Notes: a model not told the origin generated them from the sequence alone. Positions 52,268 through 58,694 are shown, counted from the first letter of the stretch. The stretch: 64,000 nt of DNA from Escherichia coli (GCF_050920415.1 NZ_CP169309.1); one strand, 5' to 3'. Numbers and translations: made by a program.

Positions 52268-53290
52268 ATGTCACTAACCAGACGGAGGTTTACACAGATT
52301 CTTGCGTCGACATTGTTCCTGCATCATCTGCCGTCCTTTGCACAATCAGTCAAATTCTGGGCCTCACTGACGCTTCCCGAAGCCCAAAACATTACACGCA
52401 TCGTCAGCGCAGGCGCGCCCGCCGATTTACTATTGCTGGCTGTCGCGCCAGAAAAAATGGTCGGTTTTTCCTCTTTTGATTTTGCCCGTCAGGCATTAAT
52501 TCCATTGCCAGAGCACATTCGCCAGTTCCCCAGGCTGGGACGACTCGCCGGGCGCGCCAGCACACTCTCGCTGGAAGGGCTTATGGCATTACATCCCGAT
52601 TTGGTCGTTGATTGCGGCAATACGGATGAAACCTGGATCTCCCAGGCACGGCAGGTTAGCGAACAGACACAAATACCCTGGTTATTGCTTAACGGGAAAC
52701 TGGAACAATCAGCAGAACAGTTAACAACGCTTGGCAAAACGTTAGGCGAAGAGCACCGCGCCGCAGAACAAGCCAATCTCGCCAGCCGCTTCGTTGGTGA
52801 AGCTAAGGCATTCGCCACCTCACCCGCCGCTAACCTCAGCTTTTATGCTGCGCGCGGTCCTCGAGGGCTGGAAACGGGCTTACAGGGTTCGTTGCATACC
52901 GAGGCGGCGGAATTATTAGGTTTGCACAACGTCGCGCAAATAGCCGATCGCCACGGTCTGACACAGGTTTCCATGGAAAATCTCCTGCGCTGGCAGCCGG
53001 ATATTATTCTGGTTCAGGAGGCCGTTACTGCAGATTTTATTCGTCGTGATCCTCTCTGGCAGGGCGTGAAAGCGGTTGCGGAACAACGCATCTTATTTTT
53101 AAGTGGCCTGCCCTTTGGCTGGCTGGGTGCCCCGCCGGGAATCAACCGTCTTCTGGGATTACGCAGACTTCACGCCTGGCTGGATCCCGCCATCAATCGC
53201 CAGTTTAAAAGTGACATGCAGCATTACGCCCAACTGTTCTGGCATTGCCCATTAAGTGACGCTGACTATCAAAAATTGGTGGCGAGCTAA
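52268..53290 (+). CDS. Periplasmic substrate-binding protein (FecB/BtuF-like) with twin-arginine-type signal peptide
   Basis: 340-aa ORF MSLTRRRFTQILASTLFLHHLPSFAQS...; RRRF motif then hydrophobic region and AxA-like cleavage site; first gene of a coupled operon. Confidence 0.8.
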   Translation: MSLTRRRFTQILASTLFLHHLPSFAQSVKFWASLTLPEAQNITRIVSAGAPADLLLLAVAPEKMVGFSSFDFARQALIPLPEHIRQFPRLGRLAGRASTLSLEGLMALHPDLVVDCGNTDETWISQARQVSEQTQIPWLLLNGKLEQSAEQLTTLGKTLGEEHRAAEQANLASRFVGEAKAFATSPAANLSFYAARGPRGLETGLQGSLHTEAAELLGLHNVAQIADRHGLTQVSMENLLRWQPDIILVQEAVTADFIRRDPLWQGVKAVAEQRILFLSGLPFGWLGAPPGINRLLGLRRLHAWLDPAINRQFKSDMQHYAQLFWHCPLSDADYQKLVAS

Positions 53291-54270
53291 TGAGAACCGT
53301 AAACGGATGTATTTTGCTGCTGGCAGCTATCAGTATCACTTTTGCCGCCGTAAGTGGGGCTTATCATCTCGATATACAGCAACTGCTGGCGCTCATTCTG
53401 CGTCAAGAAAATGTTCCTGTGCAGGAACAAATTGTCTTCTGGCAAATCCGCGTGCCGCGTATTCTTGCTGCGCTGTTTCTGGGCGCGGCGCTGGCAGGGG
53501 CCGGAACCACCTATCAGGGAATGTTCCGTAATCCCTTAGTGTCACCGGATATTTTAGGCGTCTCCGCCGGTGCCGGACTTGGTGCCTGCGCGGCAATCCT
53601 GTGGGGATTATCCATTGTTTACATCCAGCTGTACGCATTTTGCGGCGGGCTGATGGTGGTCGCGGGCGTCTGGTTGATTACGCGTCGGGTGACCCGCCAC
53701 GATCCGATCTTAACCCTGGTGCTGGTAGGCATTGCGTTAGGAACGTTGTGCGGAGCGGGGATATCGCTAATAAAAACGCTGGCCGATCCTTACACCCAGT
53801 TACCGTCAATTACCTTCTGGTTGCTGGGGGGGCTGTCCACCGTGACCTTACGCGATCTCTGCTATGCTGCACCGATCATTCTCATAGGCTCCTTGCCCCT
53901 GTTTTTTCTCCGCTGGCGCATGAATTTACTCACGCTTTCCGACGACGAAGCCCATTCGCTGGGACTGAACGTGACACGTCTGCGCTTTGGATTGATTGTC
54001 TGCGCCACACTCATCACCGCCAGCACGGTAGCAATAGCGGGCATAATTGGTTGGGTCGGCCTGGTCGTTCCGCACATTGCCCGCTTGTTGACCGGTCATA
54101 ACCATCAGCAGCTATTGCCCATGGCAATGTGTACTGGCGCGATTCTGCTCCTGCTTACCGATACGCTGGCACGCAGCATTGGAACAACAGAAATCCCACT
54201 TGGCATTCTGACCGCTTTTGTTGGTGCACCGTTTTTCCTGTTTTTGTTGTTACGCGGAGGTCGCCAGTGA
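53290..54270 (+). CDS. ABC transporter permease (FecCD family)
   Basis: 326-aa polytopic ORF; start overlaps the upstream stop (TAATG); FecCD-like segment SPDILGVSAGAGLGA. Confidence 0.85.
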   Translation: MRTVNGCILLLAAISITFAAVSGAYHLDIQQLLALILRQENVPVQEQIVFWQIRVPRILAALFLGAALAGAGTTYQGMFRNPLVSPDILGVSAGAGLGACAAILWGLSIVYIQLYAFCGGLMVVAGVWLITRRVTRHDPILTLVLVGIALGTLCGAGISLIKTLADPYTQLPSITFWLLGGLSTVTLRDLCYAAPIILIGSLPLFFLRWRMNLLTLSDDEAHSLGLNVTRLRFGLIVCATLITASTVAIAGIIGWVGLVVPHIARLLTGHNHQQLLPMAMCTGAILLLLTDTLARSIGTTEIPLGILTAFVGAPFFLFLLLRGGRQ

Positions 54271-56698: not shown

Positions 56699-56723
56699 TT
56701 CTTTGTTAAACGGAATTTATTCT

Positions 56724-58694
56724 ATGAGACTCAAAAAACGTTATCTCTGCACAGTATTATCACTTGCCTTTACCCAGCAGGCCGTAGCAGCTCAAGAGAG
56801 CGACACGCTGACCGTATGGTCCAGTCCGGTATCATCAACGACGACCACCGTTCTCGATCAACCCACCATGAAGGCCCTGGATAAACAGAATGTCGCTCAG
56901 GCATTAAGTGTCGTCCCCGGCGTGGTACTGCAAAAGTCAGGTAGCCGCAACGAAGAACAGGTCAAAGTTCGTGGCTTTGATAGTCGTCAGGTGCCGGTCT
57001 ATTTCGACGGTGTGCCCATTTATGTTCCCTATGACGGCAACCTCGATCTGGCGCGGATTCTGACCAACAATTTGGGGGCAGTTGAAGTTTCCAAAGGGTA
57101 TTCGTCGCTGCTTCAGGGGCCTAATCAGATGGGCGGAGCCATTAATATCACCCCCCAGAAGCCAACAAAACCTCTGGAAGCAAGTCTGGGATATCGCCAG
57201 GGATGGAGCCGTAGCCAGGACAATGCCTACGATATGCATGCTTCATTTGCCGCCAGCAGCGATCTGGGGTATTTGCAAGTCAGCGGTAGCCAGCTAAAGC
57301 AGGATTTTCTCGGCCTGCCGCATGGTGTAAATAATGATATTGCAGGCAAACACGGCAAGATGATTAATTCATCGGCTGATGATAAACGCGGCATTGTGAA
57401 GCTCGGTTTTACACCACGCGAAAACGAGGAATACACATTGACTTACATTAAGCAGGATGGTGAAAAAGATAACCCGCCATACAGTGGAAATAGTGGTCAG
57501 AAATCACGCTACTGGCAGTGGCCAGAGTATGACAAAGAAAGTTTTTATTATCAGGGAACGACCCAACTAAACGATCGTTTTACCCTGAAAAGTCGGCTGT
57601 ATCGCGACACCTTTGAAAATACGCTAATGATGTACAACTCGCTGGCTGATTTGAAAAATAAAAAAGGCAGCTACAGCCATTATTCCGATTACAGCGACGG
57701 TGCCGGGTTACAACTGGCAGCCGATGTGCGTGAAAACGATCTGCTGTCGTTTGCCGTTAACTGGAAAGATGACGTACACCGGGAAAAAGGTGCGCCGCAC
57801 GCCGCTTACGATCGCTATGAAGATCGTACCTGGTCGCTCGCCAGTGAATATCAATGGGCTGCTGCCGATAATGTCGATGTCGTGGCTGGAATCAGCTATG
57901 ACTGGCGCGATAGCGTAGAAGCGAAAAAACATGAGAAAGATGGCAGTATCACCCATTATGACGACAACAATCAGTCAGCTTTTAACTGGCAGGTGATGGG
58001 GAAATACCACTTTGCCAATGAAGACACGCTGGCGCTTTCGTACTATGACCGCACACGCTTTCCGACGCTGAAAGAACGCTATACCACGTCCAAACCTGCG
58101 TATAACCAGATAGCGATTGTTAACCCGCAGCTCAAGCCGGAACGCGCGCGCGGGGTGGATTTAACCTGGAATGGTGCCTTCACGCACGACTGGGGATTTG
58201 AGGTCAGCGTTTACTATAACCGGGTGAGTGATGCCATCCTCTCGCACAATATCGATGCCGATACCATTCAAAATCAGAACAGCGGCACGGTGGATTACAG
58301 CGGTCTGGATGCCGGTATTAAGGGGAAAATCAGCAATATACTGGATGTAGGATTGAGCTACGCCCTGATCCACGCTGATGCCAAACGTAAAGACATCGGC
58401 AAGATAACCGATCTGCCAACGCAGACAATGACCGCATGGATGACTCTCAAACCGTGGGAGCCGTTAAGCGTAACGCTGTCGGAAGAGGCGCGTTCCTCCA
58501 GCTACAGCAACAGTGACGGTTCACAAAAAGCCGCCGGTTTTGCGGTGACCCACATTCGAGCCGATTACACCTTAGGTCATGGCTTCAGCGTTAATGCCTC
58601 GGTCAATAACCTGTTTGATACCAAATATGCCTACAGTGAAGGGTTTATTGAAGAAGGTCGCAATTTCTGGGCAGGTGTCGAATATACGTTCTGA
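56724..58694 (+). CDS. TonB-dependent outer membrane receptor
   Basis: 656 aa from ATG 56724 (MRLKKRYLCTVLSLAFTQQAVAAQE, signal peptide); TonB-box-like DTLTVWSS; C-terminal beta-barrel ending ...WAGVEYTF. Confidence 0.85.
   Translation: MRLKKRYLCTVLSLAFTQQAVAAQESDTLTVWSSPVSSTTTTVLDQPTMKALDKQNVAQALSVVPGVVLQKSGSRNEEQVKVRGFDSRQVPVYFDGVPIYVPYDGNLDLARILTNNLGAVEVSKGYSSLLQGPNQMGGAINITPQKPTKPLEASLGYRQGWSRSQDNAYDMHASFAASSDLGYLQVSGSQLKQDFLGLPHGVNNDIAGKHGKMINSSADDKRGIVKLGFTPRENEEYTLTYIKQDGEKDNPPYSGNSGQKSRYWQWPEYDKESFYYQGTTQLNDRFTLKSRLYRDTFENTLMMYNSLADLKNKKGSYSHYSDYSDGAGLQLAADVRENDLLSFAVNWKDDVHREKGAPHAAYDRYEDRTWSLASEYQWAAADNVDVVAGISYDWRDSVEAKKHEKDGSITHYDDNNQSAFNWQVMGKYHFANEDTLALSYYDRTRFPTLKERYTTSKPAYNQIAIVNPQLKPERARGVDLTWNGAFTHDWGFEVSVYYNRVSDAILSHNIDADTIQNQNSGTVDYSGLDAGIKGKISNILDVGLSYALIHADAKRKDIGKITDLPTQTMTAWMTLKPWEPLSVTLSEEARSSSYSNSDGSQKAAGFAVTHIRADYTLGHGFSVNASVNNLFDTKYAYSEGFIEEGRNFWAGVEYTF

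Follow-up and report, generated by a model that had tools for sequence, protein, structure and literature searches.

A Six-Gene Operon at the treA-ymgE Locus of Escherichia coli: A Predicted ModE-Controlled, TonB-Dependent System for Molybdenum or Tungsten Acquisition

Introduction

What is imported by the six-gene operon that separates treA from ymgE in many strains of Escherichia coli? We address this question in a 64,000-nucleotide (nt) stretch of an E. coli genome (GCF_050920415.1, NZ_CP169309.1), hereafter the window, in which six tightly coupled, co-directional open reading frames (ORFs) occupy positions 52268-58694 of the plus strand. Their products are, in order, a periplasmic substrate-binding protein, the permease and the ATPase of an ATP-binding cassette (ABC) importer, an S-adenosylmethionine (SAM)-dependent methyltransferase, ModD, and a TonB-dependent receptor. 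An earlier annotation drawn by a model from the DNA of the window (the sequence-only reading) had named these six gene types, and all of its domain assignments were upheld by hidden Markov model and profile searches. It had discussed the operon in the frame of iron systems. We favour another substrate, and put at about 0.7 the probability that the operon is a ModE-repressed, TonB-dependent, MolBC-type system for the acquisition of molybdenum or tungsten.

A Predicted ModE Operator in the Promoter Region

A predicted operator for the molybdate sensor ModE, CGCTATATATGTAAGTATATATCG (52220-52243, assigned to neither strand), stands 48 nt before the first ATG of the operon. It was first spotted on reading the upstream region and has the form CGCTATATA-tgtaag-TATATATCG, that is, CGCTATATA-N6-TATATATCG. 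The published ModE consensus of E. coli is ATCG(N/C)TATATA-N6-TATATA(N/A)CGAT (PMC545781; PMC2700814). In the consensus search the operator is a perfect match to its 24-bp core, ATCGNTATATA-N6-TATATANCGAT, with 16 of 16 specified positions. No other site of the 64-kb window matches this core with two mismatches or fewer, against a chance expectation of 0.01.

A -35-like hexamer, TTGACA (52197-52202, plus strand), presumably part of the operon's promoter, lies 17 nt upstream of the ModE box. At this spacing the box would cover the -10/+1 region, as a repressor site does. TTGAYN is kept at the same 17-nt spacing before the box in loci of Escherichia, Citrobacter, Klebsiella, Enterobacter and Serratia. 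Binding of ModE-molybdate at 52220-52243 and repression from this site are predicted.

Conservation of the Operator

Orthologous clusters were gathered in two ways, through homologues of the methyltransferase and by a single pass over about 100,000 species-representative genomes with a binding-protein alignment, which returned 68 loci; the six proteins of the window were placed on the relatives' loci by tblastn. Box statistics concern the 66 loci that contain a binding-protein gene and were found by binding-protein homology alone (1.0 Mb). A box was counted when at least 14 of the 16 positions match, and the upstream windows comprise the 300 nt before binding-protein or receptor genes. These windows, 36 kb in total, hold 71 boxes versus 2 in the other 966 kb, an enrichment of about 940-fold. 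At least one box is present in 42 of the 44 complete six-gene loci. The 44 represent 43 independent ones: two entries (L030 and L031) are a single Affinibrenneria salicis locus (NZ_VYKJ01000001.1) with identical content at mirrored coordinates, 148827-165849 and 909280-926302 of 1075128.

The box next to the binding-protein gene mostly begins 41-59 nt ahead of the start codon. O157, E. albertii, Citrobacter, Klebsiella, Serratia, Pectobacterium and other carriers keep a site at the corresponding position, and boxes are spread over Enterobacterales, Pasteurellaceae and Shewanella. The N positions vary among species while the consensus positions are retained, and the outer AT...AT of the published consensus is recovered at flanking positions absent from the search pattern. 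The box also follows rearrangements of the gene cluster. A second one precedes the receptor gene where 100-290 nt separate it from ModD, as in Proteus, Providencia, Pectobacterium and Shewanella; boxes lie between the divergent receptor gene and ABC genes of Aggregatibacter; and a stand-alone methyltransferase-ModD pair of Edwardsiella tarda is likewise preceded by a 15/16 box.

One box-bearing locus of 2.5 kb comes from a metagenome-assembled genome labelled Collinsella sp. (JAIJJM010000486.1, L012). It encodes proteins 99% identical to the binding protein and permease of E. coli and is almost certainly an Escherichia contig misbinned in an actinobacterial assembly.

Transport Proteins

The first gene (52268-53290, plus strand) encodes a 340-residue periplasmic substrate-binding protein of class III (Peripla_BP_2, E-value 4.2e-17), related to MolA and carrying a twin-arginine translocation (Tat) signal whose RRxF motif is invariant in five genera. 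Its sequence retrieves among solved structures an uncharacterised Sulfurospirillum protein (4pag) first and MolA next. The fold search with its AlphaFold model, which has a predicted local distance difference test score (pLDDT) of 79, gives template modelling (TM) scores of 0.79-0.83 to 4pag and 0.67-0.69 to MolA (3psa), followed by putative iron binders, YiuA and haem binders. Judged from this model, MolA is the nearest functionally characterised fold. The Yersinia Yiu system was considered as a homologue and set aside, YiuA being absent from the sequence-level matches and found mid-list in the fold search only.

The second gene (53290-54270, plus strand, 326 residues) codes for the permease of a type II ABC importer, of the FecCD/BtuC type. 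Its nearest solved relative is MolB (HI1471, E-value 1.5e-64) of the Haemophilus influenzae molybdate/tungstate importer, followed by HmuU (2.7e-49) and BtuC (4.5e-41), so that MolB leads the next solved relative by 15 orders of magnitude and BtuC by 23. The ATPase (54267-55025, plus strand, 252 residues) matches MolC (HI1470) at 8.4e-36, which among solved chains outscores every other ATPase of a bacterial importer; one eukaryotic exporter domain scores higher. The last product (56724-58694, plus strand, 656 residues from the ATG, with an alternative TTG start at 56703) has a signal peptide, the TonB box DTLTV and a C-terminal YTF. It matches TonB-dependent receptor models, and its orthologues show Plug and barrel Pfam domains. 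The Pectobacterium locus (L009) has in addition a gene (4472-4900) for a 142-residue di-Mop molbindin directly upstream of the ModE box and the operon, which scores 138.6 bits with TIGR00638 against a cutoff of 55.

TonB-dependent receptor, Peripla_BP_2, FecCD and ABC ATPase are also the families of iron-chelate systems, and Fur-regulated uptake of a ferric siderophore or of haem is the default annotation. The receptor would then import an iron chelate for delivery by the ABC system, with the methyltransferase and ModD as passengers or ligand-modifying enzymes. The Prokaryotic Genome Annotation Pipeline (PGAP) accordingly labels the first product 'iron ABC transporter substrate-binding protein'; weak NCBIfam matches to FecB/FepB/IsdE, TonB-siderophore and TonB-hemin models, and the presence of YiuA and haem-binding proteins lower in the fold-search list, are in keeping with this view. 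Every iron-specific model remains far under its cutoff, however: 123.7 versus 223.5 for TonB-siderophore, 120.9 versus 316.85 for TonB-hemin, 31.9 versus 320 for the FecB-type model and 25.5 versus 205 for FepB. As an internal control, a FhuA/FoxA-like receptor that neighbours the operon in Citrobacter koseri passes the TonB-siderophore model at 341. The best Fur-box match in the region upstream of the operon has 13 of 19 positions and none has three mismatches or fewer; the upstream regions of the 66 orthologous loci show no enrichment and no match of at least 16/19. The promoter has a conserved ModE operator instead, and the closest solved permease, MolB, is not an iron permease. Iron uptake thus appears improbable. 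The iron framing of the sequence-only reading finds no support in this comparison; its remark that the gene content matches no characterised E. coli iron system is upheld. The only Fur-box-like site in the window (GAAAATGATAACCAGTATC, 41185-41203, 16/19) is about 460 nt upstream of an autotransporter ORF (41664-44531, 955 residues, TIGR01414 beta-barrel domain) unrelated to the operon.

Homology can also be drawn towards BtuB and BtuFCD, which would suggest import of a corrinoid or another tetrapyrrole that the methyltransferase and ModD would remodel. The top NCBIfam matches of the permease are BtuC models (244.6 bits) but the cutoff is 461, and among solved structures BtuC is the relative that MolB outranks by 23 orders of magnitude. 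The ATPase matches corrinoid and haem ATPase models, and the receptor weakly matches the TonB-B12 model, yet BtuD (100 versus 281) and BtuB (66.2 versus 836) are both below cutoff. The best NCBIfam match of the methyltransferase, a weak one, is the corrinoid-protein-associated CpaM (1.3e-11), and CbiT is matched weakly too; activation of the lower ligand in cobalamin synthesis involves phosphoribosyl transfer, which would suit ModD. Other scores behind this idea are equally far from their cutoffs (44.3 versus 180; 75.9 versus 599.7). An Rfam search of 51500-59300 at E-values up to 1 found neither a cobalamin riboswitch nor any other family, and the conserved regulatory element is the ModE box. 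We consider a corrinoid substrate very improbable.

The Methyltransferase and ModD

The fourth gene (55035-55847, plus strand) encodes a 270-residue class I SAM-dependent methyltransferase of the small-molecule type, recognised by Pfam Methyltransf_31/25/12/11. Its model has a pLDDT of 90; no solved relative exceeds a TM score of 0.58 in Foldseek, where the matches are generic small-molecule O-, N- and C-methyltransferases. Neither NCBIfam, Pfam, a sequence search of the PDB nor Foldseek points to a specific substrate, the matches being to generic class I small-molecule types alone.

ModD (55844-56698, plus strand, 284 residues) is a paralogue of quinolinate phosphoribosyltransferase (QPRTase). 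It scores 502 bits with the equivalog-type model TIGR01334, against a cutoff of 178.85, over residues 2-278, and is below cutoff with the NadC model (135 versus 198). The quinolinate-binding residues of the Mycobacterium tuberculosis QPRTase are Arg105, Arg139, Lys140, His161, Arg162 and Lys172. Alignment to that enzyme shows Arg139, Lys140, His161, Arg162, Glu201 and Asp222 kept, Lys172 replaced by Phe and Arg105 by Lys, and all these positions, both substitutions included, are invariant in 52 distinct orthologues. ModD was rejected as a NadC-type enzyme because the full quinolinate-binding set is not present. The alignment depicts an active site that is conserved but retuned; ModD therefore probably acts as a phosphoribosyltransferase on something other than quinolinate. 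The searchable literature yielded no assigned function for ModD.

Whether or not the transporter is there, the methyltransferase and ModD genes are found together. Conversely, Aggregatibacter has transporter and receptor without the pair, and Shewanella has them without ModD. Since pair and transporter occur apart, we read the operon as a transport core joined to a cytoplasmic accessory module. In O157:H7 Z1831 (L001) the methyltransferase gene of the operon (6142-6954) carries a Trp215-to-stop change, treA (1355-3039) has a frameshift and an IS3-family element interrupts ycgR (10306-12353). The ModE box and the remaining five genes of the operon are undamaged, so that decay of the accessory module may be under way in this lineage.

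Predicted Mechanism and Cargo

When molybdate is sufficient in the cytoplasm, molybdate-bound ModE on 52220-52243 would block transcription. When molybdenum is scarce, the six genes would be transcribed as one translationally coupled mRNA. The receptor, energised by TonB, would concentrate molybdenum species in the periplasm, where the Tat-exported MolA-like protein would capture them, and an importer of the MolB2C2 type (type II) would carry them into the cytoplasm. The methyltransferase and ModD would act downstream as a conserved two-enzyme cytoplasmic module, in which ModD is most likely the phosphoribosyltransferase proposed above.

As to the cargo itself, the free oxyanion, molybdate or tungstate, is our first candidate at somewhat less than even odds; a chelated or organic molybdenum or tungsten species comes next, as a tentative proposal. 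The oxyanion is slightly favoured because MolA binds it and ModD also accompanies plain ModABC, and the chelate stays live because of the receptor and the two enzymes. On this possible second version, which we hold no less tentatively, the receptor's substrate would be a complex of molybdenum or tungsten, whether a chelate of 'molybdophore' type or a species supplied by host or diet, and the invariant methyltransferase-ModD pair would chemically process its ligand or metal in the cytoplasm. The operon would then be the first dedicated TonB-dependent pathway for acquiring molybdenum or tungsten.

Several points count against a ModE-repressed molybdenum or tungsten system. The binding protein is distant from MolA (E-value 8.5e-8 over 76 residues, about 20% identity), its closest structure, 4pag, has no known ligand, and PGAP gives it an iron name, albeit a family-level one. 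Ten of the 66 loci, mostly distant or truncated, have no box of at least 14/16. The sign of the regulation is deduced solely from promoter geometry, and ModE activates as well as represses in E. coli (moa, dms and nap promoters). Finally, porins are commonly assumed to let the small molybdate ion through the outer membrane, and ModABC already gives E. coli high-affinity uptake; a TonB-dependent route for the free oxyanion is therefore unexpected.

Part of this evidence suits a different arrangement, in which ModE controls the operon but the cargo imported during molybdenum starvation is not molybdenum, for example a pterin or a precursor of the molybdenum cofactor, or in which ModE-molybdate activates transcription and the genes are expressed under ample molybdenum. 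No link other than the ModE box is firmly established, and the binding protein is just distantly related to MolA, but the closest characterised relatives of the transporter carry molybdate or tungstate. An organic molecule as reactant is suggested by the methyltransferase-ModD pair; ModD, however, is also found with plain modABC molybdate transporters, and in Pectobacterium the gene of a cytoplasmic Mop protein that binds molybdate lies at the locus. Activation would agree with the activator role of ModE generally known in E. coli, whereas an operator that overlaps the core promoter downstream of the -35 has the geometry of a repressor site. We regard this alternative as unlikely, and retain the reading of a ModE-repressed system for molybdenum or tungsten.

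Operon Organization

The junctions between the first five genes are very short. The binding-protein stop and the permease start share TAATG (1-nt overlap); the permease stop overlaps the GTG start of the ATPase (54267) by 4 nt in GTGA, the same GTG being called by PGAP in O157; a 9-nt gap with AAGGA inside separates the ATPase stop from the methyltransferase ATG (55035); and the methyltransferase and ModD genes overlap in ATGA. The distance from the ModD stop to the receptor gene is 4 nt if translation starts at the TTG (56703) and 25 nt if it starts at the ATG (56724). PGAP picks the ATG in O157, and this codon opens a canonical signal peptide (MRLKKRYL...AVA/AQE) followed by the TonB box. 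The gap is probably 25 nt and not below 10 nt. Coordinates and junctions bear out the sequence-only reading that the genes form one translationally coupled operon for TonB-dependent uptake with the receptor gene last; its claim that all starts and stops overlap or lie within 10 bp holds for the first five genes and probably not for the receptor.

A terminator-like hairpin of treA (GAGCAATGCC ... GGCATTGCTC, then TTTCTTC; 51953-51996, plus strand), read by eye, parts treA from the operon, which thus requires its own promoter. The GC content of the operon, 0.46-0.56, is similar to that of the flanking DNA, and the 330-nt intergenic region upstream is AT-rich (GC 0.39). Downstream, the convergent receptor and ymgE genes are separated by a perfect 9-bp inverted repeat (GCGGATAGC ... 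GCTATCCGC; 58702-58731, assigned to neither strand), also read by eye and common to both alleles of the locus described below. It is a probable bidirectional terminator, missed by the terminator scan because its loop is 12 nt long. The generic promoter and terminator scan was uninformative, with matches at or below the shuffle expectation. Farther away, 34 kb from the operon, narG (14589-18332, minus strand) codes for the alpha subunit of nitrate reductase A, a molybdoenzyme; it lies in a normal nar region, with nothing pointing to a functional linkage beyond the shared need for molybdenum.

Alleles and Origin of the Locus

The segment 51900-58750 was compared by megablast with 5426 complete E. 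coli genomes. The whole operon segment is present in 2139 of them (about 40%), and the remaining ones match solely from window position 58671 on. A 623-bp ycgY segment is found in 3171 of the 5426, and together the two alleles account for 5310 of the 5330 genomes that have the ymgE edge. The treA-ymgE locus is cleanly biallelic, with either the operon or ycgY. In the K-12-type strain EPI300 the interval holds ycgY alone (441 nt, opposite strand), in agreement with what the sequence-only reading had said of K-12. Matches on plasmid records were obtained at 12 places with the operon query and at 4 with the ycgY query, and strain ET846 has an IS1 inside the ycgY segment.

The polymorphic segment is bounded on the left by the treA stop at 51938 and on the right by the last 24 nt of the receptor gene (58671-58694, plus strand), which are kept in K-12-type genomes and at which their matches begin. 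This remnant, gcaggtgtcgaGtatacgttctga (AGVEYTF-stop of the receptor), directly precedes the common inverted repeat and ymgE. The operon has the same position relative to treA, ymgE and ycgR in E. albertii and in about ten Citrobacter species, and adjoins treA in Klebsiella, Enterobacter and Raoultella. Because of this same-site synteny in sister genera and of the receptor remnant in K-12-type genomes, the operon is, on comparative grounds, ancestral at treA-ymgE, with the ycgY allele as a derived deletion or replacement. A genomic island or insertion was rejected in view of the synteny in E. albertii and Citrobacter, the remnant and the ordinary GC content. The earlier description as a strain-variable insertion therefore stands for the variability and for the absence from K-12, while the direction is reversed: K-12-type strains lost the operon and acquired ycgY.

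A derived loss also accounts for mobility genes not being seen at the junctions. No integrase, insertion sequence (IS) element or tRNA is annotated there in the O157 and K-12-type records, no tRNA scan having been made, and no flanking direct repeat was seen by eye in the junction sequences, no dedicated repeat search having been run. To this extent the observations agree with the sequence-only reading, which had noted neither integrase, IS element nor direct repeats.

At the 3' end of treA, which encodes the C-terminal tail of trehalase, the alleles differ between the window (51880-51938) and the K-12-type locus (L002, 3300-3377), whose tail is TQPSTKEAQPTP; over its whole length, treA of the window shares just 96% identity with that of K-12. 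The tract that was replaced or recombined may thus reach into treA. The Citrobacter koseri locus (L010) carries the gene for the extra FhuA/FoxA-like siderophore receptor (11717-13831, minus strand) between the operon receptor and ymgE.

Significance

Neither the gene families nor the MolBC-A/ModE paradigm is new, and thousands of genomes carry annotations of these genes. No characterisation of the cluster was found in the searchable literature, where EDL933 Z1966 is mentioned once, as uncharacterised; a prior listing of the ModE site in Studholme & Pau 2003 or in RegPrecise is possible. Nor did the searchable literature yield a TonB-dependent route or receptor for molybdenum or tungsten.

Molybdenum supply limits the enzymes of anaerobic respiration (nitrate, dimethyl sulfoxide and trimethylamine N-oxide reductases, and formate dehydrogenases) behind enterobacterial blooms in the inflamed gut, and tungstate is used experimentally to poison molybdenum-dependent anaerobic respiration. 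A ModE-controlled molybdenum or tungsten importer would provide O157:H7 and many clinical Enterobacterales with a second energised route from the outer membrane to the cytoplasm, and would change models of how pathogens acquire these metals. A widespread annotation as 'iron transporter' would need correction, the known substrates of TonB-dependent receptors would grow in range, and ModD and its partner methyltransferase could be assigned functions in a tractable system. If the cargo is a chelate, ModD, named 30 years ago, would acquire a first biochemical function, and this would explain why the operon is retained beside ModABC in about 40% of E. coli, including O157:H7, and in most Proteus, Providencia and Citrobacter. 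Textbook molybdate uptake by E. coli comprises ModABC, the sulfate system and an unidentified low-affinity route (PMC4031551). This picture was defined in K-12, a deletion allele at this locus, and the operon/ycgY polymorphism amounts to a natural experiment over thousands of sequenced strains.

Comparison with Known Systems

The operon shares its three-compartment architecture and its protein families with BtuB-BtuFCD, FhuA-FhuDBC, FecABCDE and YiuABC-YiuR. In yiuABC-yiuR the receptor gene likewise comes last. These systems are controlled by Fur, a riboswitch or FecIR, unlike the ModE control predicted here; the two cytoplasmic enzymes embedded between the ABC genes and the receptor, and the failure of iron and B12 models to reach their cutoffs, set the operon further apart. 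For TonB-dependent receptors of non-iron metals under a metal-specific regulator, ZnuD (zinc) and OprC/NosA-type proteins (copper) give a precedent. The receptor described here differs from them, scoring 50.9 against a cutoff of 472 with the TonB-copper model and having no ZnuD among its matches.

ModD belongs to the same TIGR01334 family as the proteins of Rhodobacter capsulatus modABCD and Geobacter sulfurreducens modDABC, which are likewise linked to molybdenum transport; its gene is a marker of molybdenum operons, and the Geobacter modDABC has a predicted ModE site (PMC545781). There ModD accompanies ModABC, whereas here its operon companions are a MolBC-type importer, a receptor and a methyltransferase that is its dedicated partner. 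With ModABC and the ModE regulon of E. coli the operon has in common the operator consensus in its promoter region, the predicted repression by molybdate-ModE and the purpose of molybdenum supply. ModABC, however, is a type I importer, its binding protein is of class II and it has neither an outer membrane component nor accessory enzymes, and the ModE regulon was defined in K-12, which is devoid of the operon.

MolBC-A of Haemophilus influenzae (HI1470/HI1471/HI1472) resembles the products of the operon in combining a type II ABC importer with a class III binding protein, and in the proximity of modD, which is HI1473 in the Haemophilus cluster HI1469-1475 and within the operon here. It imports molybdate with low affinity and is thought to act at high molybdate, and molybdate represses molB by way of a factor yet to be identified (PMC4031551). 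As described, the cluster of Haemophilus lists neither a TonB-dependent receptor nor a methyltransferase, its gene order is different and its binding protein is about 20% identical. Unlike that low-affinity, high-molybdate system, an operon equipped with a TonB-dependent receptor implies the scavenging of a scarce substrate.

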